This document shows, piece after piece, positions 17,983 through 56,145 of a stretch of DNA of 64,000 nt (position 1 is its first letter; every line of letters begins with the position of its first letter). The position numbers were made by a program, and so were the translations under genes. The notes under the pieces are model-generated. The model had not been told where the DNA came from. It saw only the letters and a program-made list of their open reading frames with translations, and did no database searches. The DNA is from an uncultured Planctomycetaceae bacterium (GTDB lineage: Bacteria > Planctomycetota > Planctomycetia > Pirellulales > PALSA-1355): NCBI GenBank assembly GCA_964598535.1, contig CAZRCI010000015.1, positions 31,098 through 95,097 of the forward strand, read 5' to 3'.

Positions 17983-18147
17983 GGTGGTGTCCTAAGAGTG
18001 TGTTGCTGGAAGGGAATGCCTGTGTGGCACGCTCAGAGCGCAGCGTGGGCGTGCTGAAGTTGACTCGGAAAATCATGGTCATTCGAGCACGCCCTTCGTT
18101 CCTCAGGGCCGTGCCACCTCCGGCAACACATTTTTAGGACACTACCT
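17983..18147. mobile_element. MITE-like non-autonomous element, copy 1 (165 bp)
   Basis: Ends GGTGGTGTCCTAAGAGTGTGTTGC ... GCAACACATTTTTAGGACACTACC form about 26-bp imperfect terminal inverted repeats. It is flanked by direct ACGAAAC (17976-17982 and 18148-18154). The interior is near-identical to the copy at 28284-28488. Confidence 0.75.
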
Positions 18148-28283: not shown

Positions 28284-28488
28284 GGTGGTGTCCTAAGAGT
28301 GCGTTGCTGGAAGGAAATGCCTGTGTGGCACGCTCAGAGCGCAGCGTGGGCGTGCTGAAGTTGACTCGGAAAATCATGGTCATTCGAGCACGCCCTTCGT
28401 TCCTCAGGGCCGTGCCACCCCCGTTCGAGCACGCCCTTCGTTCCTCAGGGCCGTGCCACCCCCGGCAACACACTCTTAGGACACTACC
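28284..28488. mobile_element. MITE-like element, copy 2 (205 bp, with internal 41-bp tandem duplication)
   Basis: Same TIRs as copy 1. It is flanked by direct CGCCGCGG (28276-28283 and 28489-28496). The internal unit TTCGAGCACGCCCTTCGTTCCTCAGGGCCGTGCCACCCCCG occurs twice (28383-28423, 28424-28464). Confidence 0.75.
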
Positions 28489-28945: not shown

Positions 28946-29018
<73 letters not shown>

Positions 29019-38217: not shown

Positions 38218-39996
38218 TTGATCGTGGCTACTACGACTCCCAAGCGCGCCGCCGCGGCCCTGCAATCAGGTGCCGATATCCTTGTCGAATGCCTTGTGCG
38301 GCACGGCGTCGAGGTCGTATTCGCCTACCCTGGCGGCGCCAGTATGCCGCTTCACCAATCGCTCACGGCGTACAAAGACCGCATTCGCACGATCCTACCC
38401 CGGCATGAGCAAGGCGGCGGCTTCGCGGCCCAGGGCTATGCCCGCACCACGGGCAAGCCCGGCGTGTGCATGGCCACCAGCGGCCCGGGCGCGACGAACC
38501 TTGTCACATGCATTGCCGACGCCAAGCTCGACAGCATCCCTCTGGTCGCAATTACCGGTCAGGTGAAGACGGCCGTCATTGGTTCCGATGCGTTCCAGGA
38601 AACGCCGATCGTCGAAGTCTGCCGCGGTATTACCAAGCATCACTACTTGATTACCGACATCAATGACCTCACGCGCATCATGCGCGAGGCGTTTCATATT
38701 GCCACCACCGGCCGCCCTGGCCCGGTGTTGATCGACATTCCCAAGGACGTGCAGCAGGCTCAGATCATTCCCGACTACGACGCCCCCATGAACCTGCCGG
38801 GGTATCATGCCGAAGACCACAAGGCGCGCCCCGAGCAGATTGCCCAGGTGGCGGCCGCGATTAAGCGCTCCAAGCGTCCCGTGATTTACGCCGGTGGCGG
38901 TGTCGTGATGGGCAACGCCAGCGGCGAGCTCCGCGAACTGGCCAGCAAGACTAAGATTCCCGTCACGATGACACTGATGGGGCTGGGCGCCTTCCCGGGC
39001 GATCACCCGATGTCGCTCGATATGCTCGGCATGCATGGCAGCGTGTACTCGAACTACGCCGTCGACCAGGCCGATCTGCTGTTGGCCTTCGGCGTGCGGT
39101 TCGATGACCGCGTGACGGGCAAGGTCTCTGAATTCGCCAAACACGGCAAGATCGTACACATCGACGTCGATCCGTCGGAGCTGAATAAGAACAAAGAAGC
39201 CCACATCCCGATCATCAGTGACATCAAATACGCGCTGGGCGAACTGAACAAAATCGTCGAAGCGCCCGAGGATCTTTCGGCCTGGCACCAACAAATCGCC
39301 GAGTGGAAGCAAGCTTATCCGTTTGGTCTGGGAGAATGCACGGGCGAAACGATTACCTCGCAGTATGCGATTCACAAACTGTGGGAGCTTACCAAGGATC
39401 GCGATACGATCGTCACCGTAGGCGTGGGACAGCATCAGATGTGGGGCGCCCAGCACTACCGCCTTCGCGAACCGCGTACCTGGTGTTCGAGCTCCGGCCT
39501 GGGCACGATGGGCTTCGGTCTTCCCGCGGCCATGGGCGCCAAGGTCGCGCATCCGGAGAGCCTCGTCGTCGACATCGACGGCGACGGCAGCTTCCAGATG
39601 AATATCCAGGAGCTGGGAACCTGCTTCTGCGAGAAGATTCCCGTCAAGGTGCTGTTGCTCAACAACCAGCACCTGGGCATGGTCGTGCAGTGGGAAGATC
39701 GCTTCCACGAGGGCAATCGGGCGCATACGTACCTCGGCCCGATCGACAATCCGGAGGCCATTGGCCAGGGCTCGCCCGACAAGCCAGCCGCCCGCTTCCC
39801 CGATTTTGTTGCCATCGCCAAAGGCTATGGCGCTGGCGCCCGCTATGTGCGTGAGAAGTCACAGCTCGAGGATGCCCTGCGAGAGATGATCGAGTATCCC
39901 GGCCCGTTCGTGCTCGATGTGGAGGTTCCTTATCAGGAGCATGTGCTCCCGATGATCCCTGCCGGCATGACGGTGAAGGATCTGATTCGGGAGTAA
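38218..39996 (+). CDS. ilvB: Acetolactate synthase (acetohydroxyacid synthase) large subunit
   Basis: [35 protein letters not shown]...DGDGSFQMN thiamine-diphosphate motif. Likely GTG start at 38224 after GGAG. Confidence 0.93.
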
Positions 39997-40016
39997 CCCC
40001 CCCCTGTAGCCGCCTG

Positions 40017-40112
40017 TTGAGAATAGGCCATCGCGGTTTATTTCAACCAGCGCCAAGCGTGCGGGAGTCAAACTCCGCGCGGCTCGCAAAAATAACGACT
40101 TACGCCGTTATG
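40017..40112 (+). repeat. Three-hairpin structured repeat, copy 1 (REP-like element / candidate ncRNA or terminator module)
   Basis: TTGAGAATAGGCCATCGCGGTTTATTTCAACC...GCCAAG-[hairpin]-CGGCTCGCAAAAATAACGACTTACGCCGTTAT. It is alignable over its length to 49401-49497, with paired changes in the stems. Confidence 0.7.
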
Positions 40113-40289
40113 AAGCCGTACGTGGTGGGTCGCTGCCCCGCTGCCCAGACCGTCTGGTCGCGCGGCTTCTGCGAAATTTCTCTGGGAATTCGCCGTCCTG
40201 GCGCTACGAAATCGGGGCGAGCGAGCGCCCGTACTTCATGGAGCGTTTCCGCGGCATGGCGGCCTTCGCCCGCCAGTCTTTCCAAATTT

Positions 40290-40318
40290 TTGCCACAATG
40301 TGCGAAAATCTGGAGAAT
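40290..40318 (+). promoter_or_regulatory. Possible sigma-70-type promoter for the secreted-protein cassette
   Basis: TTGCCA, 17 nt, GAGAAT, preceded by an A/T-rich stretch. It lies about 200 nt upstream of GTG 40514. This is pattern matching only. Confidence 0.25.
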
Positions 40319-40513
40319 GTGTGTCCGTTTTTCGTGTAGCTTTCGCCTTGTAAGGTAAAGGCGACCTAAGCCAGGCTGCCCGGTCCGTTATCGAATCGCC
40401 GGTGCGTAGGCACGCTCGAGCGCGGACTGTTCAGCCAGGCAAGGGCGCGGGTCAAGTTGCCGTGCGCGGCTTTTGTAGATGTGGCTTTGTACTTCAAGAT
40501 AAGGAAACTCGCC

Positions 40514-41347
40514 GTGAAATGGCAGGTTGTGACAATAGCATTGACGTTGGTCTCGGTAGTCGCAGCGGAGGCACACGCGCAGCGGCGTGCCCCCGCTCCC
40601 CCGAGTGGTGGATTCAACCTGGCGCCGCCAAACTCCTCGGGCTCCCAAAACAACCGAGGATTCAACCTGGGGCCGAACTCGTCGGGAACTACCAATCAAG
40701 GGTTGTTCGGGACCGGCAATCCCAATCAAGGGTTGTTCGGGCCGGGGGTACAAGGACGTCCGAACTATAGGTCACCGAACATGTCGGGCACCTCTAATTT
40801 TGGCGGCTTTACGGCTCCACAGCCTCCGGCGTTCCAGTTACCCCAGTTCAACTTTCAGCCGCAACCGAACAACAATTCGTTCTGGGGCAACAACAACAGC
40901 AACAACAATAGCTGGGGCAACAGCAATTCGAACTCGTGGCGAAACAACAATCGCAACAATTGGAATGACGATTACGAGTACAATCGTCCCCAGCGCAACT
41001 ACACGCGTTCGCAACCGCAGTATTACGACAATGGCGGTTCCACGACGCAATGGTCCGCGCCACCTCCTCCGAAGGTCTACAGCCAGCGGCCGATTCGCAT
41101 CATCTGCACGGCCGACGGCTTTGCCCAGTGCAGCTATGCCTTGCTGAACGCCTCGGGAAAGACGTACGAATACACGATGACTGGCGGCGATCGGCAAAAT
41201 CTTAAGGAAACTACGGACTGGCGGATTCGCTACAACCAAGGCAACGACCGCGGCTACAAGACCTACTCGCTCAAGGGCGGCAAGGTCTATGAACTACGGC
41301 AATCGCACGACGGAACGTGGTCCTTCTATACCGTCGGCGAGTTGTAA
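40514..41347 (+). CDS. Secreted low-complexity (N/G/Q/S-rich) protein with conserved about 85-aa C-terminal domain, paralogue A
   Basis: GTG 40514 after AAGGA gives VKWQVVTIALTLVSVVAAEAHA (signal). The middle is repetitive (GFNL x2, NQGLFG x2, WGNNNSNNNSWGNSNSNSW). The C-terminus RIICTADGFAQCSYALLNASGKTYEYTMTGGDRQNLKETTDWRIRYNQGNDRGYKTYSLKGGKVYELRQSHDGTWSFYTVGEL is shared with the next gene. Confidence 0.7.
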   Translation: MKWQVVTIALTLVSVVAAEAHAQRRAPAPPSGGFNLAPPNSSGSQNNRGFNLGPNSSGTTNQGLFGTGNPNQGLFGPGVQGRPNYRSPNMSGTSNFGGFTAPQPPAFQLPQFNFQPQPNNNSFWGNNNSNNNSWGNSNSNSWRNNNRNNWNDDYEYNRPQRNYTRSQPQYYDNGGSTTQWSAPPPPKVYSQRPIRIICTADGFAQCSYALLNASGKTYEYTMTGGDRQNLKETTDWRIRYNQGNDRGYKTYSLKGGKVYELRQSHDGTWSFYTVGEL

Positions 41348-41481
41348 AGCACGCCAAGCAACGATTGCCCGTTTCAGGAACGCTATTCGTGGACGGGTGT
41401 TGCATGTGAATGGTTTTGCGTTGCAGTTTGTTCGTCCAGTCGGTTTTCATGGCTCCGTAGCTGAAGGAAGGGAGACCTCTC

Positions 41482-42123
41482 GTGAGATGGTTGGCTATGA
41501 CGCTGATGTTGGCGATCGTCTTGGCGATGGCAAGCGAAACGTATGCGGCGCCCGCGGCGCCGGAAAGGTCGGACGACGTGGCGCCGGCACCCGCGCCGGA
41601 AGCGCCGAACTCGTCTGGTTTCAATAACTCGAGTTCGTTTAGCTCGGATGCCTTTGATCCGTCCGGATCGTTTCCGTCTGCCTCGCCACCGCCGCCCGAC
41701 GTCGTTGTTCCACGGCACTCTCAGCCGCGGTCCAACAATGGCGCGAACTGGGGTAAGAATCGAGTTCGAAATAATTACGACTACGATCAGCCCCAGGACA
41801 CGTATCAGCGTCCGCAGTCGCGTTCCTATGGTCTCGGGCCGCAACCAGCGCATAGCCAGCAGCATGGCATTCGTATTATCTGCCCTTCCGACTGTGTTGA
41901 ACGCTGCCGCTACACGCTACTGAATGCGTCCGGCAAGGCGTTTGATTACGCGATTTCCGGAGGCGAATATCAGAACCTGAAGGGCCCCGCGAGCTGGCGG
42001 ATCCGTTACGACCAGGGTAACAACCGCGGCTACAGGACCTACTCGCTGAAGAATGGCGCAGTCTACGAATTGAAACAGTCTGGCGACGGTTCCTGGGTGT
42101 TCCGTACCGTCGGCGAGTTGTGA
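41482..42123 (+). CDS. Secreted protein with the same C-terminal domain, paralogue B
   Basis: GTG 41482 after GGAAGGGAG gives MRWLAMTLMLAIVLAMASETYA (signal). C-terminus: RIICPSDCVERCRYTLLNASGKAFDYAISGGEYQNLKGPASWRIRYDQGNNRGYRTYSLKNGAVYELKQSGDGSWVFRTVGEL. Confidence 0.75.
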   Translation: MRWLAMTLMLAIVLAMASETYAAPAAPERSDDVAPAPAPEAPNSSGFNNSSSFSSDAFDPSGSFPSASPPPPDVVVPRHSQPRSNNGANWGKNRVRNNYDYDQPQDTYQRPQSRSYGLGPQPAHSQQHGIRIICPSDCVERCRYTLLNASGKAFDYAISGGEYQNLKGPASWRIRYDQGNNRGYRTYSLKNGAVYELKQSGDGSWVFRTVGEL

Positions 42124-42201
42124 TGAATGCGGTGGCATCGTTGTGAGCCCGCATTCAAGTCTAGTATTTTTGATCGTCCCACGAACTTCGAGGTACCACG
42201 C

Positions 42202-42633
42202 ATGAAGCCATCGCATATCGTGTTTGCATTGCTTTTGCTCTGCAGCACGGGCAGTTTCACGGCCGCCCAGAATTATGGTCCCCGGCAGTATTACTCCGGC
42301 TGGAACAGTCACCCGTCGCACGGGTACCACTATCGCCACCTGTACTACAAGCCTCGGCCCGACTATGTCGGCTACAGGCACCACTACTGCATCTACTACC
42401 CCAGCCGCCCGAAGCACGTGTACTTCTACAATCCGTACAAGAAGTCGTACTGGGGTCGTTGCAGCATAGATCATGGCGGCAAGTACTCCTTGTTGGCCGA
42501 AGGAGATCGCCGATCGTCGCTCCAGGACATTCCTGAATCGGCCTTTCCCGAGCCGACCGCGCCACCGGCGCTTCCGGGCGTTGAAGACAGCGTTCCTTTG
42601 GATCTGCCGCCGGACGATCTGCCGGTACGTTAG
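42202..42633 (+). CDS. Small secreted Tyr/His/Pro-rich protein
   Basis: ATG 42202 gives MKPSHIVFALLLLCSTGSFTAAQ (signal), then YYSGWNSHPSHGYHYRHLYYKPRPDYVGYRHHYCIYYPSRPKHVYFYNPYKKSYWGRC. Confidence 0.6.
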   Translation: MKPSHIVFALLLLCSTGSFTAAQNYGPRQYYSGWNSHPSHGYHYRHLYYKPRPDYVGYRHHYCIYYPSRPKHVYFYNPYKKSYWGRCSIDHGGKYSLLAEGDRRSSLQDIPESAFPEPTAPPALPGVEDSVPLDLPPDDLPVR

Positions 42634-42648
42634 TCGTAGCCTATTCTG

Positions 42649-42692
42649 CTCGTGTGTTTCGGCAAACGTGCCGAAACACACGAGCGGTTTTT
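42649..42692 (+). terminator. Rho-independent terminator
   Basis: Perfect 16-bp stem CTCGTGTGTTTCGGCA / TGCCGAAACACACGAG with loop AACG, followed by CGGTTTTT. It begins 16 nt after the stop of the Tyr-rich gene. Confidence 0.75.
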
Positions 42693-42861
42693 CACCCCCT
42701 GTCTGCCCGATGTTTTACCGCTCAACTCCCACTGGATGCCGGTTTTCGGCATCTGGCGAAATAGCTGTACGGGAGAGGCCGGTCAAGAAGCGCAGAGGGG
42801 CGTTGTGTGCCACCGCAACCAGCGATTAAAAAAACGCAGCGCCGAAAGCGAGAAGATTGCC

Positions 42862-44610
42862 GTGAGAAAAGCGACCCTGATGATGCTGCGGAACGCGTTG
42901 CGACGATCGATCGTGCTGGTCGCGATCTTGCCCGGGGTGGCGGCCGCTGACGAGGAATCGCAGCAACTCGCTCGCGAGGCGACCGCGCTGCTGAAGGCTC
43001 GCTGTTACACTTGCCACGGCGAGACCTTCAATGGCAACGCCCAGTTCAATGTCCTGGATTCTCCGGCGCTCCTTGAGCACCAGTATGTCCTGCCCGACGA
43101 CGTAGAGAATTCGCCTGTCTGGCAGCGAGTAGCCGGTAACGAGATGCCGCCCGAGGATTCGGGGGTCGCGCCGTTGACGGATGATGAACGTGTTCTGTTG
43201 AAACGTTGGATCGCGGCCGGCGCCCCGCAAGTTCAACGCGAGCGGCGCAACTTCAAGGCCTACTCAACTTTGATCGATGCGGTCTATACCGACCTTGAGC
43301 GGGCCGATGCCGAGGATCGCGTGTACTTGCGTTATTTCTCCCTCGCGCATCTGAGCAACAACTACCAGGAAGTCACTGATTTCGACCTTCGGCTCTATCG
43401 GGCGGCTTTCAGCAAGGCCATCAACAGCCTGAGCGTCGTCGATGAAGTCTATGTGCCCACGTTCGTGGATGACGAGCAGACCATTTTTCGCGTGGACATT
43501 CGTCGTCTCGGGTGGACTTCGAAACAGTGGTCGCATCTGCTCGATTCCTATCCGTTCGGCATTCACTTTCACCATGCCGACGATTCGCAACTAGCCAATC
43601 GCGATCGGCAAATCGATGATTGGTCAGGGACCCCCACTTGCTGGATTCGAGCAGACTGGTTCATCAACAGCGCACTGCGCCCGCCGTTGTACGAACAACT
43701 GCTGAATATTCCCGATACGCTGGACCGTCTCGAAACGCATTTAAACGTGGATGCGGTCCGCAATTTCCGCGAGGACCGTCTGGCTCGAGCCGGCTTTGCC
43801 ACCTCGGGCGTGTCGAATGGCAATCGGCTCGTCGAGCGACACTCGTCGCGCGACGGCTACTACTGGAAGAGTTACGATTTCACCGGCAGGACCACCGACG
43901 GCAACCTCTTTCGTTTCCCGCTGGGGCCGAAGTTTGCCGAGAACGAATTCGCCAACCTCGCATTCCAGCACGATGGCGGCGAAATGATCTTCAGTCTGCC
44001 AAATGGCTTGCAAGCGTACATGCTCTGTGACGCCTCGGGCAAGCGGATCGACAAGGGGCCGATCGAGGTCGTGCGCGATACGAAGGAAATTGGCGGTACG
44101 CCAGAAGTTATTAACGGTCTTTCCTGCATCCATTGCCACCGGCACGGGATGATCGACTTTCGAGACTCGGTTCGCGACGGGGCAGGCGTCTTCGACGCGG
44201 CGCGCCGCAAAGTCCACCGTCTCTATCCGGAACCCGCGGCGATGTCTGAACTGGTCGCCAAGGATCGCGTCAAGTTCATGGCCGCCTTGAGTGAAGCAAT
44301 CGGGCCTTTCTTGCAAGTCGGAGACGATCGGACAAAACCCATCGAAGAATTTGCCGAGCCGGTCGGAGCGATCGCCAGGTTCTACCAGCGCGACCTGACC
44401 CTGGCGGCCGTCGCCTGTGAAATGGGATTTGAAAATCCCGAAGTTCTACGCGAGCTGATCCAGCACAATCGCGAACTCGTACGGCTAGGGCTGGGGCCGC
44501 TGGTTGGCGGCCAAACCATCAAACGCGCGGCTTGGGATAGTAACGCGGCCTTCGTGTCACCATTTCAAGAGGCGATGCGCGCTTTGGGCAAAGCCACGCC
44601 CGTTAACTAG
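42862..44610 (+). CDS. Secreted protein with N-terminal planctomycete cytochrome c (PSCyt1-like) domain and a second CXXCH motif
   Basis: Start at GTG 42862 or ATG 42880 (MMLRNALRRSIVLVAILPGVAAA signal). CYTCHGE near the N-terminus with NEMPP, and a second LSCIHCHRHGMIDF about 400 aa later. The rest is unrecognised. Confidence 0.7.
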   Translation: MRKATLMMLRNALRRSIVLVAILPGVAAADEESQQLAREATALLKARCYTCHGETFNGNAQFNVLDSPALLEHQYVLPDDVENSPVWQRVAGNEMPPEDSGVAPLTDDERVLLKRWIAAGAPQVQRERRNFKAYSTLIDAVYTDLERADAEDRVYLRYFSLAHLSNNYQEVTDFDLRLYRAAFSKAINSLSVVDEVYVPTFVDDEQTIFRVDIRRLGWTSKQWSHLLDSYPFGIHFHHADDSQLANRDRQIDDWSGTPTCWIRADWFINSALRPPLYEQLLNIPDTLDRLETHLNVDAVRNFREDRLARAGFATSGVSNGNRLVERHSSRDGYYWKSYDFTGRTTDGNLFRFPLGPKFAENEFANLAFQHDGGEMIFSLPNGLQAYMLCDASGKRIDKGPIEVVRDTKEIGGTPEVINGLSCIHCHRHGMIDFRDSVRDGAGVFDAARRKVHRLYPEPAAMSELVAKDRVKFMAALSEAIGPFLQVGDDRTKPIEEFAEPVGAIARFYQRDLTLAAVACEMGFENPEVLRELIQHNRELVRLGLGPLVGGQTIKRAAWDSNAAFVSPFQEAMRALGKATPVN

Positions 44611-44669
44611 TGCTCTGTCAACGCTAAATTTTGGAGTTGAAACTGATTGGCAGAGCACTAGGTATTTGA

Positions 44670-44805
44670 TTGCCGCCGAACCACTTACGTGTTCGGCGGT
44701 CGTGCTCTCGCGAAAAGTAAACCCGAAAACCAAGCATCGGAAATAATCCGTAAAGTATCGAGCCATTGCATACCGCCGAATCATTTACGTACCCGGCGGG
44801 CGTGC
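44670..44805 (+). repeat. Two copies of a 36-nt hairpin motif, 100 bp apart
   Basis: TTGCCGCCGAACCACTTACGTGTTCGGCGGTCGTGC (44670-44705) and ATACCGCCGAATCATTTACGTACCCGGCGGGCGTGC (44770-44805). Each has CCGCCG...CGGCGG arms around a (C/T)TTACGT loop. Confidence 0.6.
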
Positions 44806-44890
44806 CGTTTCAAAAACTCAATTCTCTGGCGCGGCGCAGCACGCAGGTCTGGGATGGCCGCGCTTATTTGTTGGGAGAGGCAGGATATCT

Positions 44891-45997
44891 ATGGATCGGC
44901 GGTTGAACTGGCGACATCTATTTGCGTGGGCATGCCTAGCGCTGAGCGTTATTGGGCAGATGGCCTCGGTCGAAGCCGCAACGCTCGACGAATCCGTGCA
45001 AGGAGCGGCGCAGAAGATTGCGTCTTATCTTCGCTCGAAAGGCGAGAAAAGCCTCTCGATCGGGCAATTCACCGGGCCGCCTCAACTCGGAGCCACTTCG
45101 GGCCCCAGTATTGCCCAGCTTTTCAACGATCATCTGGGCAAGCATGAGATCCTTGTCGAACGCCGTTCGAACGTCGGCCTTCAGGGAGCCTTCGTGCTGG
45201 TCGATGCCCCCGACGAAGGCGTCGCGGTCCGGCTCAATTGCAGCCTGGTCGATCGCACGGGCGAAGTGCTTACCGACTTTGTCCTCAACGCCGATACGGT
45301 CGACCGCCAAGAGGACGTGGCCACGTTGCTGGGAACAACGGCGCACCTCTTTTCTGAAGACCGCCTTGACGACCGAAATCGCGATTTCAAAAAGCGAGTG
45401 TTCTCTCCGGAACTGGCTGTCGACGGCGCGCGGGCACGAGCCGATCGACAAAGCCCTTATGCCATTGAGATCGCGGTGGAACACCGGCCCGTGCCGGTCG
45501 AGATTCATGATGGCCAAGGTTTTGTACGCCTCGGGCGAGGAGACCTCTACACGGTGCGGCTGTACAACGACAGCGACCTGGAGGCCGCCGTGCGATTGTC
45601 GATCGATGGATTGAACGTCTTTACCTTTAGTGAAATTCGCGACCCGACTTCGGGCAAGCCGAAGTATGCGGTCTATATCATTCCTCCGCATAGCCATGTC
45701 GAGCTTCGAGGCTGGCACCGAACCAATGAATCGGTCGATTCGTTTTTAGTGACCGATTACGCGGGAAGCGCCGCGGCAACGATCAAACACCAGGAAAAGA
45801 TCGGCTCGATCACGGCCATCTTCTCGGCCGCCTGGCCCAAGGGCGGGCGTCCGCCCGAAGACGAAAACCTGACGGCGCGATCCGCCTCGGGCGGCAACGC
45901 CACGGGCTTCGGGCCGCCAATCAAGCAAGTGGCGCACGAGGTCGAGCGAGAAGTCGGTCGCATGCGGGCGGCGATCACGATTCGGTATGATAAATAA
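44891..45997 (+). CDS. Secreted two-domain protein of unknown function, upstream partner of the WD40-caspase gene
   Basis: Signal WRHLFAWACLALSVIGQMASVEA. There is an N-terminal alpha/beta-looking region. The C-terminal half is beta-rich (YAIEIAVEHRPVPVEIHDGQGFVRLGRGDLYTVRLYNDSDLEAAVRLSIDGLNVF...YIIPPHSHVELRGW) and reminiscent of DUF4384-type domains that accompany caspases; that link is from memory and unverified. Confidence 0.65.
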   Translation: MDRRLNWRHLFAWACLALSVIGQMASVEAATLDESVQGAAQKIASYLRSKGEKSLSIGQFTGPPQLGATSGPSIAQLFNDHLGKHEILVERRSNVGLQGAFVLVDAPDEGVAVRLNCSLVDRTGEVLTDFVLNADTVDRQEDVATLLGTTAHLFSEDRLDDRNRDFKKRVFSPELAVDGARARADRQSPYAIEIAVEHRPVPVEIHDGQGFVRLGRGDLYTVRLYNDSDLEAAVRLSIDGLNVFTFSEIRDPTSGKPKYAVYIIPPHSHVELRGWHRTNESVDSFLVTDYAGSAAATIKHQEKIGSITAIFSAAWPKGGRPPEDENLTARSASGGNATGFGPPIKQVAHEVEREVGRMRAAITIRYDK

Positions 45998-46120
45998 GAA
46001 ATAAGAATTCGACCCCGCTGCGGTTCCAGCAATTCACTGATGTCCCGCTGGTGTTCGGCCCTTCAATGTTCGACAACGTCGCGGGCAAGGGGGGACGACG
46101 GCGGAAAGGAGAGCGAAGTT

Positions 46121-49100
46121 ATGTGCGGCAGTGCAACCATCCTGGTGGCGGCAGTTCTCGTCTTGCAACCATTGACAAGCCCGCCCGGCGATGCCACGCC
46201 AGCTACTAGCGCGGGCAAACGCGCCGACTTCGTGCGCCACGAACCAGAATTGACGCTCGATACCGGGGGGCTACTGAGCGAGGTATGCGACCTGGCTTTC
46301 AGCCCCGATGGACGATCCCTGGCGGTAGCCGGAGATAAACTCGTTCGGATCTACGATGTCGACTCCGGAGCGTTGATCACCACCTTGCGCGGCGATCGTT
46401 CCCGCTCCAGCTACGGAAGCGTCAATTCCGTCGCATATTCTCCAGACGGGAAGCATCTGCTTGTAGGGATCTTCGATTATCATCCGCGCGGCTCGATTCG
46501 GGTCTACCGCACGGACCAGTACGACCGCATCGAGCGACTCTTGCCCGGGCATACTTCGCCGTGCACTTTTCTGCGTTTCAACCGGGACGGGAAGTACCTG
46601 GCATCGTCCGATTCCGATGGCGAAATATGCATCTGGGATTGGCCAGCGCAAAAGATCATACGTCGGATCGCTCCCCGAAATCCCGATAAGCCGATCATCG
46701 ATACGCTAGAGTTCGCTGATCGAGGCCCTTCGCTGATCTCGATCGAATATGATTTGCCGCACGTTTATCGGGTTCCCGACGGTGCGGAAATCGCTCCCGG
46801 TCCGGAAATGAATCCGCTGGTCCTCGGCTGGATGTTCGACGTGATAAGCAATCGGGCCAAGTGGCCAGTCGCACTAACCAACAACAATTCGCCCCGCGTC
46901 TACGACTTCCAATTAGAAAATCGTGTTTGGGCGGCGGCTGGCGTGGGAACTTCTGGCGGGGCGAATAAATATTGGATTGGGCTGTGGAAAGCCCGCCCAA
47001 TGGCACAAGACGCCCCTCCGAATCCGGCCGCGGCGGTCTACGACAAACACAATTGGCGTGTACGCAAGATCGCGATCTCACCACGGCGAGACCTCGTCGC
47101 ATCGGGCGACGTATTCGGCGAAGTACATCTATGGGAGGCCGCGACCGGACGCCAGCAGCGCGTCATCAAGAGCTTGGGACGCTCCATCTACAATGCGGCA
47201 ATCGATCCTCAGATGACGCGAATCGCATTTGGCACCAAACCGGATCATGCAAACTGGGGATTCAACCGGTACGGACGTCCGACGCAGATCATTGATTTGC
47301 GACAACGAACCATTCGCGGGATCGACGATACGGTCGACCTCATCGACGAAACACAGCGGATCGGCGATCTCGAGGTTTCGGTGCAGCCCCCGCATGGCTC
47401 AAATCAGAGCTATCATCTGCTCAAAAATCGTGGCGGCCGTCCCGCCGGACGCTATCGCCTCCCGAGCGGCCGCCATCCCGCGGTATTCACGCTGTTATCG
47501 CAACCATCGTTGGGTGTCGCGGAACCGGTACTGTTTGGCGACGATCAAGGCCTCCTGGCCATGTGGGACACGGCCGGCGACGAGATGAGACGCTACTACC
47601 ACGGGCACAATGGAATGATCACCTCGCTCAGCCCTGCTCCTAATGGCAAGCTGTTCGTCACGGGATCGACGGATCGCACGATCCGCATTTGGAGCCTTGT
47701 CAATTATCAGCCGACGGGCATCTTTGATTTCAAATATGAGAACTCCGCGGTAATTCAAGTTCCGCCTGGTTCTTCATCAGCACGCGCCGGCGTGCGCATT
47801 GGTGATCGAATAAAGTCTTTCGACGGCCACTCGTTGCAAGATGTTTATGAGATGATGATGACCAACCACTTCGACTACCGCCCGGGCCAGGTCGCGAAAA
47901 CCGTCATGCAGCGCGGCGATAAGACATACTCCTATCAGATGGAGCTCAAGGAAGGCTTTCAGTACGTCGAGCCCTTGCTGAATATCTTTGTCAGCGACGA
48001 CGGATCTTGGATCATATGGACGCCGCAGGGCTATTACGATTGCAGCCCGGGCGCCGACCGGCTCATCGGCTGGCACGTGAATCAGGGGCCCGACAAGCCG
48101 GCCCAATACTTCCGCGCGGAGCAATTCAAGCGGCAATTGTACCGCCCCGACATTATCAACGCACTGCTCGAGTCCGGCGACTTCGACGAGGCCGTTACCG
48201 CGGCCGATCAGAAGTACCCCCAACGCGGCACGGCCGTCGACTTGACTAAGCCCGAGGCGCTTGAAAAGATCGCCCCTCCGGTGGTGACTATGGGCGCGCA
48301 CGAACAAGAGGGAGACGACCTGCGAGTTACCTTGAACGTCGAGGTGCGGTCCACCAACTCGCAAGGAATCTCGAAGGTCACCTTACTGCACAATGGCGTG
48401 CCGGCACGCACCTTCGTTCCCGGCTCTGACGAGCAACAGTTGTACAAGCTGGCGCACCGTTGCCGGTTGTTGCCCGGGCGCAACGAATTTACTTTCATCG
48501 CCGCAAATTCTCACGCCACCTCCAAGGCCGAAGACGCCCAGTTGGTGCTAACGGCGCCGGCGAGCGATCAACAAGGCCGGGTCTATCTTCTGGCAATCGG
48601 TGTTTCAAACTATCAGAACAACGGGCAGGGAATTGACAACCTTCAGTTCGCGGCCACCGATGCGCAAGCCTTTATATCAACCGTGGAAAAACACCGCGCC
48701 GGCAAACTCTACGCGGACATCCAAATCAAGGCGTTGATCAACGAAGACGCCACGCGCGAGAATGTGCTGGGGGGACTCCAGTGGTTGACCGAGAACGTGG
48801 CCGCTGGCGACTCGGTGATCATCTTTGCCGCATGTCACGGCCTCGTCGAGCGTGACAGCTTCTACTTGGCGACGCACGATGTCGACCCCGCCCGCTTGCG
48901 GTCTACCGGAGTGTCGTGGCGTGAGCTTACGGGCGTGCTTCACGAAGAACTTCCAGCTTGTCGCCGAATCGTATTCTTGGACGCGTGCCACAGCGCCGGC
49001 GTTGTCGGCACGGACACCCGCAGCCCGCTACACGATCTGGCGGCGCCCGAGCTGGGCACCGTGTTTTTCGCATCGTGTACCTTGCAGCAGAAGAGCTTCG

Positions 49101-49327
49101 AGAGCAATGAATGGGGACACGGCGCGTTTACCAAGGCGATCCTCGATACGGCCAGCGATCCGGCAGCAGATTTTGCTCCCCGCACAGGCGACGGACTGCT
49201 CAGCACGCTTGAGCTCGAGTCCGGTGTCAGCGAGAGCGTTCGGGTTCTGACACGCGACCAGCAGCACCCCGTGGTTTTCGTTCCGGCCAACGTGGGCCGC
49301 TTCAACGTCTTGGAACTGATCCGCTGA
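46121..49327 (+). CDS. Signal-peptide WD40-repeat / PDZ / caspase-like (peptidase C14) multidomain protein
   Basis: AAGGAG precedes ATG 46121 (MCGSATILVAAVLVLQPL). WD40 blades: LAFSPDGRSLAVAG, VAYSPDGKHLLVG, GKYLASSDSDGEICIWDW, VASGDVFGEVHLWE, FVTGSTDRTIRIWSL. PDZ-like region: ARAGVRIGDRIKSFDGHSL. C-terminal caspase fold with the His/Cys dyad (VIIFAACHGL and IVFLDACHSAG). Confidence 0.85.
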   Translation: MCGSATILVAAVLVLQPLTSPPGDATPATSAGKRADFVRHEPELTLDTGGLLSEVCDLAFSPDGRSLAVAGDKLVRIYDVDSGALITTLRGDRSRSSYGSVNSVAYSPDGKHLLVGIFDYHPRGSIRVYRTDQYDRIERLLPGHTSPCTFLRFNRDGKYLASSDSDGEICIWDWPAQKIIRRIAPRNPDKPIIDTLEFADRGPSLISIEYDLPHVYRVPDGAEIAPGPEMNPLVLGWMFDVISNRAKWPVALTNNNSPRVYDFQLENRVWAAAGVGTSGGANKYWIGLWKARPMAQDAPPNPAAAVYDKHNWRVRKIAISPRRDLVASGDVFGEVHLWEAATGRQQRVIKSLGRSIYNAAIDPQMTRIAFGTKPDHANWGFNRYGRPTQIIDLRQRTIRGIDDTVDLIDETQRIGDLEVSVQPPHGSNQSYHLLKNRGGRPAGRYRLPSGRHPAVFTLLSQPSLGVAEPVLFGDDQGLLAMWDTAGDEMRRYYHGHNGMITSLSPAPNGKLFVTGSTDRTIRIWSLVNYQPTGIFDFKYENSAVIQVPPGSSSARAGVRIGDRIKSFDGHSLQDVYEMMMTNHFDYRPGQVAKTVMQRGDKTYSYQMELKEGFQYVEPLLNIFVSDDGSWIIWTPQGYYDCSPGADRLIGWHVNQGPDKPAQYFRAEQFKRQLYRPDIINALLESGDFDEAVTAADQKYPQRGTAVDLTKPEALEKIAPPVVTMGAHEQEGDDLRVTLNVEVRSTNSQGISKVTLLHNGVPARTFVPGSDEQQLYKLAHRCRLLPGRNEFTFIAANSHATSKAEDAQLVLTAPASDQQGRVYLLAIGVSNYQNNGQGIDNLQFAATDAQAFISTVEKHRAGKLYADIQIKALINEDATRENVLGGLQWLTENVAAGDSVIIFAACHGLVERDSFYLATHDVDPARLRSTGVSWRELTGVLHEELPACRRIVFLDACHSAGVVGTDTRSPLHDLAAPELGTVFFASCTLQQKSFESNEWGHGAFTKAILDTASDPAADFAPRTGDGLLSTLELESGVSESVRVLTRDQQHPVVFVPANVGRFNVLELIR

Positions 49328-49400
49328 ACCATACCGAGGTCCGCGGACGAGGGGGAGTGACGTCTCTGCCTGGGGCTTGGGTGGCTGGTCTATCCGTCCG

Positions 49401-49497
49401 TTGAAATAAGCCATCGCGGCTTATTCCAACCTCTGCCAAGTACGAGGCCAGGGGCTTCGTACGGCTCACAAAATAGCGACTTATGCCCGCTATTTTG
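49401..49497 (+). repeat. Three-hairpin structured repeat, copy 2
   Basis: TTGAAATAAGCCATCGCGGCTTATTCCAACC...GCCAAG-GTACGAGGCCAGGGGCTTCGTAC-GGCTCACAAAATAGCGACTTATGCCCGCTATTTT. Hairpins: AATAAGCC/GGCTTATT, GTACGAGGCC/GGCTTCGTAC, AAAATAGCG/CGCTATTTT. It lies between convergent genes. Confidence 0.7.
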
Positions 49498-49533
49498 CGA
49501 TTACGCAGTCCGTCGAATACTTCAACCGGTCGG

Positions 49534-50406
49534 CTATCCTTCAAAAGGCTCCATATGCACGAGCACGTCTCGCACCGAGGGGACCGCTGCCCGGATAGCG
49601 CCTTTCACCTTGCCACTCATTATGTGCGCATCGTGAAGCGAAAGCACGGGATCGGCTTGCACGTGCAAATCGACCATGAGTTCAGTGCCGAAGCGCCGCA
49701 CGCGCAACTTCTCCGTCGCCAGAACTCCCTCAACACTTCGAGCCGCGCCATCGATCTGCGCTAGGATCGGCGGCTCGGGCATCCGATCCATCAAGTCGTT
49801 TACCGCGACCCGCAAGAATCGACCGCCATTGATTGCGATAATCCCTGCGGCGGCAATCGCGGCCCAATCGTCGGCCGCCGCCCACCGCTCACCGCCCCAA
49901 ATGGCCAACGCGATACCGATGAACGCGGCGGCCGAAGTAACCGCATCGCTGCGGTGATGCCAGGCATCGGCCATCACAACGTTGCTGTCCGCCTCGTGTC
50001 CGACGGCCAGCACTTTGCGAAACAACACTTCTTTGATCGCGATGACCCCTGCTAGCACATAGAGCGTAAAGGTCGCCGGCAGGTGGTGCGGGGTCATCAA
50101 CTCGCGGATCGCCGCGATCACGATGCCGATCGCGGCGCCCAGCAACATCAAAGCGACGGCGGCCGTGGCCAACGCTTCGGCCTTTCCATGTCCATAGGGA
50201 TGGGATTCGTCGGCCGGCTGTGCCGAGACATGCAAACCGCCCCACACGATCAGCGAAGCAAAGATGTCGGTCGACGATTCGACCGCATCGGCGACCAGAG
50301 CATAAGAATGCCCCACGATTCCGGTAACCAGCTTGATCACCACCAGCGCAGCATTGACCACAAGCCCCCACTGCGCCGCTCGAATGCCAGAGGTTAGTCG
50401 TTTCAC
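49534..50406 (-). CDS. Cation diffusion facilitator (CDF) family metal efflux transporter
   Basis: Six TM helices, SYALVADAVESSTDIFASL and HHRSDAVTS metal-site motifs, and a C-terminal cytoplasmic domain. Confidence 0.9.
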   Translation of the reverse strand: MKRLTSGIRAAQWGLVVNAALVVIKLVTGIVGHSYALVADAVESSTDIFASLIVWGGLHVSAQPADESHPYGHGKAEALATAAVALMLLGAAIGIVIAAIRELMTPHHLPATFTLYVLAGVIAIKEVLFRKVLAVGHEADSNVVMADAWHHRSDAVTSAAAFIGIALAIWGGERWAAADDWAAIAAAGIIAINGGRFLRVAVNDLMDRMPEPPILAQIDGAARSVEGVLATEKLRVRRFGTELMVDLHVQADPVLSLHDAHIMSGKVKGAIRAAVPSVRDVLVHMEPFEG

Positions 50407-52548: not shown

Positions 52549-52623
<75 letters not shown>

Positions 52624-52632
<9 letters not shown>

Positions 52633-56077: not shown

Positions 56078-56145
56078 AGTCGTGTAGCACAACGGTAGTG
56101 CGCCGGGGATATCCGGCGGTGCGGGTTCGATTCCCGTCACGACTC
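56078..56145 (+). ncRNA. tRNA-like sequence with aberrant anticodon arm (degenerate or unusual element-borne tRNA)
   Basis: Acceptor AGTCGTG/CACGACT, D arm GCAC-AACGGTA-GTGC and T arm GCGGG-TTCGATT-CCCGT are all canonical. The anticodon arm GCCGG-GGATAT-CCGGC has only a 6-nt loop, the variable region is 3 nt, and the total length is 68 nt. Confidence 0.45.

Follow-up and report, generated by a model that had tools for sequence, protein, structure and literature searches.

Two copies of a hairpin-rich repeat in the window

The window, the whole 64,000-nt stretch analyzed here (C15:31098-95097 in assembly numbering), is part of a 5.4-Mb Pirellulales genome of 96 contigs and 61.5% G+C. Two plus-strand ORFs in it, an acetolactate-synthase-like ORF at 38218-39996 and an ORF at 46040-49327, are each followed directly by a copy of a repeat rich in hairpins (Table 1). 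Copy 1 retains the left end, hairpins 1-3 and the linkers and lacks hairpins 4 and 5 and the right terminal inverted repeat (TIR). The full-length nhmmer profile aligns its model positions 2-100 with C15:71104-71208 (window 40007-40111), the covariance-model score is 60.9 bits, and no family sequence was seen in the flank 3' of 40112. Its left end, although degenerate, corresponds to the target tetranucleotide and left TIR, CAGCCTGTTGAAAAAT, of subfamilies B and D. Copy 2 is near-complete. Hairpin 4 is deleted (an alignment gap) and the inverted repeats are degenerate. In the covariance model, window 49390-49536 reaches 91.8 bits along model positions 1-158 (nhmmer: C15:80487-80626, model positions 1-151). 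The same tetranucleotide, CTAT, stands at both of its ends, from which it follows that copy 2 was inserted as a single unit. Bases 49534-49536 of the right-hand tetranucleotide form the TAG stop of a minus-strand ORF (49534-50406).

Table 1. Features of the two repeat copies, in window positions (TIR stands for terminal inverted repeat and TSD for target duplication)
Feature	Position	Strand	Basis
Copy 1, MITE without its 3' side (model ~1-100 of 158)	40004-40112	+	nhmmer, covariance model
Copy 1, degenerate left end, CTGTAG then CCGCCTGTTGAGAATAGG	40004-40027	+	comparison with family members
Copy 1, hairpin 1, TTGAGAATAGGCC / ATCGC / GGTTTATTTCAA	40017-40046	+	RNAfold; two G·T pairs
Copy 1, hairpin 2, core GGAGT-CAA-ACTCC plus flanking G/C pairs	40059-40080	+	RNAfold
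Copy 1, hairpin 3, ATAACG ... CGTTAT; A-T at the family's A·C site	40092-40111	+	
Copy 2, near-complete MITE with both 4-bp TSDs	49390-49537	+	covariance model, nhmmer
Copy 2, left TSD, CTAT	49390-49393	+	direct, non-palindromic repeat of right TSD
Copy 2, left TIR, CCGTCCGTTGAAATAAG	49394-49410	+	alignment
Copy 2, hairpin 1, GTTGAAATAAGCC / ATCGC / GGCTTATTCCAAC	49400-49430	+	RNAfold
Copy 2, hairpin 2, GTACGAGGCC-AGG-GGCTTCGTAC	49440-49462	+	RNAfold
Copy 2, hairpin 3, CAAAATAGCG ... CGCTATTTTG; G-C at the family's A·C site	49469-49497	+	RNAfold
Copy 2, right TIR, degenerate, ATACTTCAACCGGTCGG	49517-49533	+	alignment
Copy 2, right TSD, CTAT	49534-49537	+	read from sequence

A preliminary description of the locus presented these copies as a family of two with three hairpins each. 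All hairpin and linker strings quoted there are found at their places, including the hairpin 1 arms AATAGGCC/GGTTTATT in copy 1 and AATAAGCC/GGCTTATT in copy 2, and the two copies do align over ~100 nt. This likeness is far above chance, because the unit recurs at ~126-147 loci of the genome; the family is therefore not one of two copies. The extents given were also too short, copy 1 starting at ~40004 and copy 2 running from 49390 to 49537.

A genome-wide family of ~158-bp elements

BLAST of copy 2 against its own genome returned dozens of matches. An iterated nhmmer profile of the 100-nt unit, whose consensus contains three stems of 12, 9, and 12 bp, gave 132 matches at ~126 non-overlapping loci, ~76 of them full length for that unit. 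When the flanks of the copies were printed, conserved sequence continued on both sides, and realignment with 120-nt flanks produced a consensus of ~158 bp (CTAGCAGGCTGCTGAAAAAGTCCGTCGTGACC...GGGATCGCATCCCTGCGATCCTAGCAGGCCGCTGAATTTTTCAGCAGCCTGCTAG). A full-length profile of 158 nt then matched 147 non-overlapping loci, with at least 140 of the 158 positions covered at 58 of them. Several copies sit at contig ends, and the repeat accounts for some of the contig breaks in the assembly.

The intact element consists of a 4-bp target duplication, a left TIR, hairpins 2, 3, and 4, hairpin 5, and the second target duplication. Its TIRs are 16-20 bp long (CAGGCTGCTGAAAAAG), and the left one doubles as the 5' arm of hairpin 1. 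The ends of the consensus are the inverted repeats CTAGCAGGCTGCTGAAAAA / TTTTTCAGCAGCCTGCTAG, with the TIRs CAGGCTGCTGAAAAA(G) / (C)TTTTTCAGCAGCCTG. Both ends were found with at most five mismatches in 25 of 65 copies, which are mostly 155-165 bp long, with two at 140-141 bp. There are thus five hairpins in the element, and the three described earlier are its left and central ~100 nt. The middle hairpins of the two window copies, which had been called completely different, are both diverged forms of the family's hairpin 2, GTGCGGAGC-TAA-GCTCCGCAC. Hairpin 4 reads GGGATCGC-ATCCCT-GCGATCC, and the long hairpin 5 arises where an internal TIR copy faces the right TIR.

Target duplications were read from a covariance-model alignment of 87 copies (85 from other genomes and the two of the window). 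The terminal tetranucleotide is YTAR-like, with CTAG the commonest and CTAA, CTAT, and similar sequences also present. CTAG stands at both ends of 13 copies but, being a palindrome, is uninformative as to duplication or inverted repetition. Among non-palindromic tetranucleotides, 15 matches between the ends are direct (CTAA ×9, CTAC ×3, CTAT ×2, TTAT ×1) and only one is inverted, which identifies a 4-bp duplication of a YTAR-like target. Such a duplication is habitual in the IS5 subgroup, according to ISfinder descriptions.

The family has no coding capacity and carries no transposase remnant; the ORFs that overlap it are only the spurious ones of a high-GC genome. The ~158-bp consensus lies within the 50-1000 bp size range of MITEs. 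Taken together, the two window copies are very probably old, partly decayed members of a non-coding MITE family moved by an IS5-type transposase. The youngest subfamilies in this genome are A (n = 11, 93.4% identity) and B (n = 8, 89.6%). There is no sign of current activity, because even the youngest subfamily, with members such as C21:60662-60819 and C18:33505-33662, has already diverged by ~6.6%.

Distribution among genomes

A search of one-genome-per-species contigs with a conserved 19-mer gave more than 110 loci, almost all in Pirellulales/Planctomycetia metagenome-assembled genomes, from which the host itself follows to be a Pirellulales planctomycete. BLAST found full-length copies in 15 of 31 close relatives. 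Across the order, the covariance model detected the element in 40 of 201 genomes, belonging to 29 of 118 genera and at least 12 families, at one to well over a hundred candidates per genome. Within the genus the distribution is patchy, with many copies in one species and a single weak copy in two. A phylum-wide sample of 301 genomes held the element in three: the genome of the window, one other of the same order, and a weak case outside it. The consensus had no blastn match in a plasmid collection.

We found no published account of this family in the literature on MITEs of Planctomycetes. As far as could be found, then, it is a MITE family not described before, and it is widespread in one planctomycete order. 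In many Pirellulales genomes, annotation can now assign ~150 loci per genome to one MITE family.

IS5-family partners with matching ends

A search for 19-mers resembling the TIR away from the MITEs identified, on contig C67, two of them in inverted orientation at a distance of 1.34 kb. The pair delimits an IS (C67:14657-15998) with the ends CTAGTAGGGTGCGGAAAAAC / GTTTTTCCGCACCCTGCTAG and an ORF of 339 aa. This ORF scores 188.6 bits with the IS5-family model NF033581 (cut-off 140) and also matches Pfam DUF772 and DDE_Tnp_1. The repeats of this IS differ from the MITE TIR by one or two bases, and the right TIR of the youngest MITE subfamily, CAGGCTGCGGAAAAAC, is a single base away from them. The transposase ends ~42 aa earlier than its intact homologues, and this only matching IS in the genome is probably defective, judging by the predicted protein.

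Homologues of the C67 transposase occur in 16 of the 201 genomes of the order. The two closest, from genomes G079 and G157, share 74% and 57% protein identity with it; both are intact, with 381-383 aa, and lie in ISs of ~1.38 kb that carry AGGCTGCTGAAAAA exactly at both ends. One of these partner ISs reads CTAG|CAGGCTGCTGAAAAAC at both ends and the other TTAA|CAGGCTGCTGAAAAAG/C. The subterminal 50 nt of the C67 IS, by the transposase-proximal repeat, align to MITE positions ~84-132 with a score of 42, as compared to 21.6±4.1 in shuffles, none of 500 of which reached 42. This alignment suggests that the MITE interior is partly derived from an IS end.

These observations fit a mechanism in which the DDE transposase of a matching IS5-family IS would recognize both MITE TIRs in trans and insert the element at YTAR sites, duplicating 4 bp. 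Presence of the transposase (16/201) and of the MITE (40/201) are not correlated across the order, the two overlapping in 3 genomes where 3.2 are expected. Metagenome-assembled genomes often lose IS copies. The missing co-occurrence may reflect long-lived orphan MITEs, loss of ISs from metagenome-assembled genomes, or both.

Empty sites were sought in two ways. Genes of three congeners can be aligned, at 76-85% identity, while their spacers cannot, and no orthologous site was resolved; the joined flanks of 35 complete copies, compared with their own genome, gave no paralogous empty site. Because no empty site was found, the case for mobility rests on the TIRs, the target duplications, and the distribution. 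The MITE and the intact IS5-family partners together provide a defined transposase-substrate pair for planctomycete genetic tools.

Compensatory changes in the stems

The preliminary description had made its reading depend on covariation among further copies. We built a model of five named hairpins (158 positions, 55 pairs) and used the covariance-model alignment of the 87 copies instead of a MAFFT alignment, because indels misalign hairpin 1. Run on the MAFFT output as it stood, RNAalifold found no more than hairpin 2, some of hairpin 4, and the pairing of TIR with TIR. Covariation in the model-based alignment is well above both shuffles and slid controls. Changes on both sides are seen for 39 of the 55 pairs, where shuffles give 18.7±2.2 and slid controls no more than 27; 88.5% of cells are paired (82.0% in shuffles), doubly changed cells number 272 (73.5 in shuffles), and the covariation score is 0.179 (0.073 in shuffles, at most 0.057 in slid controls). 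None of 500 shuffles reaches any of these values. An alignment fitted to the model favors the structure, and the margin over the slid controls is nonetheless large.

Individual hairpins contribute differently. The two MITE ends vary in concert from subfamily to subfamily. Since hairpins 1 and 5 consist of TIR sequence, their covariation may simply be that of transposase sites evolving together. Hairpins 2 and 4 do not draw on the TIRs and covary as well (CG<->GC in 25 copies, GC<->AU/CG in 31, and UA<->CG/GC in 21). Hairpin 3 is hardly variable and contains conserved mismatches.

Within subfamilies A and B the picture is another one. Private changes in the stems are one-sided in 41 cases and compensated in one, which places the compensation in the lineages that founded subfamilies and not in inserted copies. 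Rates within subfamilies are 0.028-0.030 per site per copy in stems and 0.038-0.102 at unpaired sites. We infer that the internal hairpins would be under selection in the propagating lineage, for transposition competence or for the tolerability of new insertions, and that single copies would drift neutrally after insertion. DDE transposases are not known to require internal hairpins. For covariation-based searches for structured RNAs, the implication is that the subfamilies of a mobile element can also yield compensatory changes.

Strand preference and the hairpin 3 mismatch

In the preliminary description, the two G·U pairs in hairpin 1 of copy 1 on the plus strand were taken to mean that the element is read as plus-strand RNA. 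The wobble pairs are there, on that strand; the conclusion drawn from them is not upheld, since it is the opposite strand that folds better. Of 70 copies in this genome, 56 give a more stable RNA fold as the reverse complement (-43.2 vs -37.6 kcal/mol, p = 2e-9), and so do 72 of 79 copies of other genomes (-77.1 vs -68.9 kcal/mol, p = 8e-14). The G·U pairs of copy 1 are thus a peculiarity of one decayed copy. Stem mismatches in plus orientation agree with the stability estimates, with 241 A·C vs 104 G·T in this genome, a difference partly inflated by the misalignment of hairpin 1, and 251 vs 123 across genomes. Removal of high-frequency positions leaves 100 A·C vs 71 G·T. The strand bias is concentrated in a few inherited positions, chiefly a pair of neighboring A·C sites in hairpin 3.

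An A·C site in hairpin 3 also bears on a claimed base-pair exchange. The hairpin 3 arms ATAACG/CGTTAT in copy 1 and ATAGCG/CGCTAT in copy 2 were correctly reported, but they are not the true covariation that they had been held to be. Most members of the family have A·C at this site (59 of 76 copies in this genome, 54 of 87 across genomes), and by comparison with these, the A-T of copy 1 and the G-C of copy 2 each lie a single transition from A·C and are separate repairs of that ancestral mismatch.

Placement relative to genes and the question of an RNA function

Gene contexts were assigned with our own crude gene calls, made with a codon-usage log-odds score (3663 genes, 82% of the genome). 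Almost all elements are intergenic: they lie between convergent genes in 36 cases, in tandem contexts in sense (27) or antisense (31) orientation, between divergent genes in 18 cases, and inside a called gene in eight. Spacers of at least 100 bp are 15% convergent and 28% divergent, and the convergent excess over this baseline indicates enrichment at the 3' ends of genes, with no preference in orientation.

Target choice offers an explanation. YTAR occurs at 1.6 per kb in coding and 6.5 per kb in non-coding sequence, i.e., it is fourfold rarer in coding sequence. In a genome of 61.5% G+C, YTAR sites are sparse within genes and often coincide with TAG/TAA stops; many copies lie directly after genes because YTAR sites are often stop codons. 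Among the 94 elements that have a complete end, 19 carry a terminal tetranucleotide whose TAR is exactly a neighboring gene's stop codon. Compared with 15.6% of non-coding YTAR sites, these 19 of 94 show no targeting of stop codons beyond the YTAR expectation (p = 0.14). A target preference can thus put elements after genes, in a position that mimics a 3'-UTR signal.

Signals of transcription were looked for in both window copies. No terminator-like or promoter-like consensus was found inside either of them, and an intrinsic terminator, with a G+C-rich stem and a T-run, was considered and rejected on the same ground. The only two terminator-like matches lie downstream of copy 1, at 40158-40174. 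Terminators are poorly known in the planctomycete phylum. Rfam 15 at gathering score yielded three tRNAs and nothing else over the whole window, and no match at E <= 10 over 39950-40200.

With these data, we can weigh the reading in which the repeat is a family of functional structured RNAs, either small RNAs or cis-acting 3'-UTR elements, encoded on the plus strand of the window and selected for their fold at each locus. The compensatory changes, the position of both window copies just 3' of plus-strand ORFs, the G·U pairing of copy 1 hairpin 1 on the plus strand only, and the somewhat slower change of stems than of unpaired sites within subfamilies would all be expected of such RNAs. Against this stand the ~147 loci with TIRs, target duplications, and matching IS5-family ISs; the balance of sense and antisense copies in tandem contexts; the greater stability of the opposite strand; the one-sided decay of stems within subfamilies; the YTAR targets at stop codons, which explain the position after ORFs; the lack of internal terminator-like or promoter-like sites in the window copies; and the empty Rfam result. 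We regard this reading as very unlikely. Of the corresponding claim in the preliminary description, two parts hold, namely that the repeat is not a simple duplication and that its stem potential has been kept by compensatory change; its third part, a functional RNA on the plus strand, is not supported. The repeat is an ordinary kind of selfish element rather than a dedicated regulatory RNA.

A milder variant has the MITE co-opted across Pirellulales as a structured transcript module, acting in processing, in stability, or as a read-through barrier at gene ends. We consider this unlikely. If it were true, the fixed 158-nt layout of five hairpins and the conserved A·C mismatches, which are G·U on the other strand, would indicate a function at the level of RNA or of single strands, in one orientation.

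Other modes of mobility

Hairpins and an extragenic location would also suit a REP/REPIN-type palindrome, moved in single-stranded form by a RAYT, which is a hairpin-recognizing Y1 transposase of IS200/IS605-like type. The genome has four genes for Y1_Tnp (PF01797) proteins, and one strand's hairpins are favored by the conserved A·C mismatches, as would be expected of strand-specific recognition. None of the four genes, however, lies within 4 kb of any element, and the element has 4-bp direct target duplications, which the Y1 (IS200/IS605-type) mechanism is not known to make. Its ends are moreover identical to those of DDE-type IS5-family ISs. REP families are known from Planctomycetes, but the 158-bp consensus lacks the short GTAG/CGTC-tagged palindromes that define REPs (PMC3733652). 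A REP/RAYT origin is therefore highly improbable.

That the two window copies are direct repeats which bracket, and once mobilized, a 9.4-kb block in the manner of a composite transposon is barely credible: they do lie in the same orientation at the block's borders (40.0-49.5 kb), and the five ORFs of the block have no homologue in a congener's ~6-kb interval between the same flanking genes, which shows that the region is variable, but copy 2 has a CTAT/CTAT duplication of its own, copy 1 lacks a right end and has a left flank, CTGTAG, unlike the right duplication of copy 2, a neighbor within 10 kb is expected ~40% of the time with ~147 loci in 5.4 Mb, and both copies fall among the family's old and diverged members.

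Comparison with known mobile elements

The reading we favor, mobilization in trans by an IS5-type transposase, can be compared first with IS5 itself. IS5 of E. coli and its subgroup duplicate a 4-bp YTAR target (CTAG, CTAA) and have TIRs of ~16 bp with a GGTGCG-like core, and the transposase of the subgroup combines DUF772 and DDE_Tnp_1 domains. The repeat of the C67 IS, AGGGTGCGGAAAAAC, has the same GGTGCG-like core. The MITE differs from IS5 in having no coding capacity and an interior unrelated to it.

For REPs, single-strand movement by a Y1 transposase is presumed, and target duplications are not known. Like the present element, the sequences of the REP/REPIN-RAYT system are extragenic palindromes, often located after genes, that form imperfect hairpins; REPs, however, are tagged palindromes of 20-40 bp (PMC3733652), whereas the element described here is a 158-bp composite with the TIRs of a DDE-type IS and 4-bp duplications.

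Stable stem-loops predicted for transcripts and trans-mobilization by ISs are textbook features of MITEs (PMC10969869). Correia/NEMIS, ERIC, RUP, and the Coxiella QMITE share with the present element a length of 100-200 bp, TIRs, an intergenic location, stable predicted stem-loops, and presumed trans-mobilization by ISs (PMC10969869), and differ from it in the IS families that are their partners and in their target duplications. Experiments have demonstrated that some of them affect transcripts, whereas the present element is known from its sequence.

Close parallels are MITEs with TIRs matching IS5-family ISs, which are established in Porphyromonas gingivalis and Neisseria (PMC4596501). In BrickBuilt, MITE293, and MITE700 of P. 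gingivalis and in the Neisseria ATR with ISNme1, as here, the TIRs are identical to those of IS5-family ISs or within one base of them (PMC4596501). Those elements and ours have in common that they are non-coding, occur in many intergenic copies, are flanked by target duplications, and retain no transposase remnant. The present element is set apart by its sequence and phylum (Planctomycetota, Pirellulales), by a very uniform length of ~158 bp across the families of an order, by a regular 4-bp YTAR duplication where the duplications of BrickBuilt are irregular (PMC4596501), and by its five internal hairpins with compensatory changes. It is a MITE family of the ordinary IS5-derived kind whose hairpin architecture is unusually well kept.

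Stop codons at the insertion target

The MITE, a ~158-bp non-coding IS5-derived element, duplicates a 4-bp YTAR target on insertion. In 19 of 94 elements genome-wide, the stop codon of a neighboring gene is exactly the TAR of this duplication, and one such instance lies in the window at 49534-49536. Stop codons make up 15.6% of non-coding YTAR sites, and the observed 19/94 agrees with that background rate. Target choice alone therefore places elements directly after genes.

Mismatches in hairpin 3

Hairpin 3 of the MITE carries two neighboring A·C mismatches (model positions ~84/97 and the adjacent pair in the 158-position covariance model) that are kept in most copies and in many genomes. On the opposite strand these would read as G·U or G·T. 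At these positions it is mismatches rather than pairs that are conserved.

Genomic surroundings of the copies

The two old MITE copies of the window sit at the borders of a variable region (40000-49540), a ~9.5-kb block that lies between ilvB and the ORF at 49534-50406. The congener genome G003 has an unrelated ~6-kb block in its place, and the five window ORFs of the ~9.5-kb block gave zero tblastn matches in this corresponding G003 block. Rfam matches in the 64-kb window were limited to three tRNA genes. The model of the MITE family has no match at window 17983-18147 or 28284-28488. None of the four Y1_Tnp (IS200/RAYT-like) domain genes of the genome adjoins a MITE copy (0/4).

Several contigs of this genome (C-numbers) start or finish within a MITE copy, for example at C19:1-143, C38:5-121, C22:1-123, and C17:2-71, which suggests that the repeat caused the assembly breaks. 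A full-length copy scoring 121 bits was also observed at locus L083 (PLCO01000001.1), a 2.9-kb contig labeled as an Acidobacteriaceae MAG and assigned to another phylum; this contig is most likely a mis-binned planctomycete fragment.

Coordinates of the hairpin 3 mismatch sites, tRNA genes, and transposase-related features
Feature	Location	Remark
Site of the family's hairpin 3 mismatch, copy 1	window 40095/40108	
Site of the family's hairpin 3 mismatch, copy 2	window 49476/49490	
tRNA gene	window 28946-29018	Rfam
tRNA gene	window 52549-52632	Rfam
tRNA gene	window 56078-56145	Rfam
Y1_Tnp gene	C12:27623-27955	
Y1_Tnp gene	C6:191049-191393	
Y1_Tnp gene	C89:2507-2794	
Y1_Tnp gene	C2:125982-126203	
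IS5-family insertion sequence, 1.34 kb	C67:14657-15998 (locus L145 658-1999)	CTAG at flanks

An IS5-family insertion sequence in the genome

The IS5-family insertion sequence on C67 is the sole copy of that element in the genome. Its transposase is 339 aa long and ends ~42 aa before its intact homologues (381-383 aa); the absent C-terminus is still recognizable in a different frame. This element is probably a frameshifted, defective copy.
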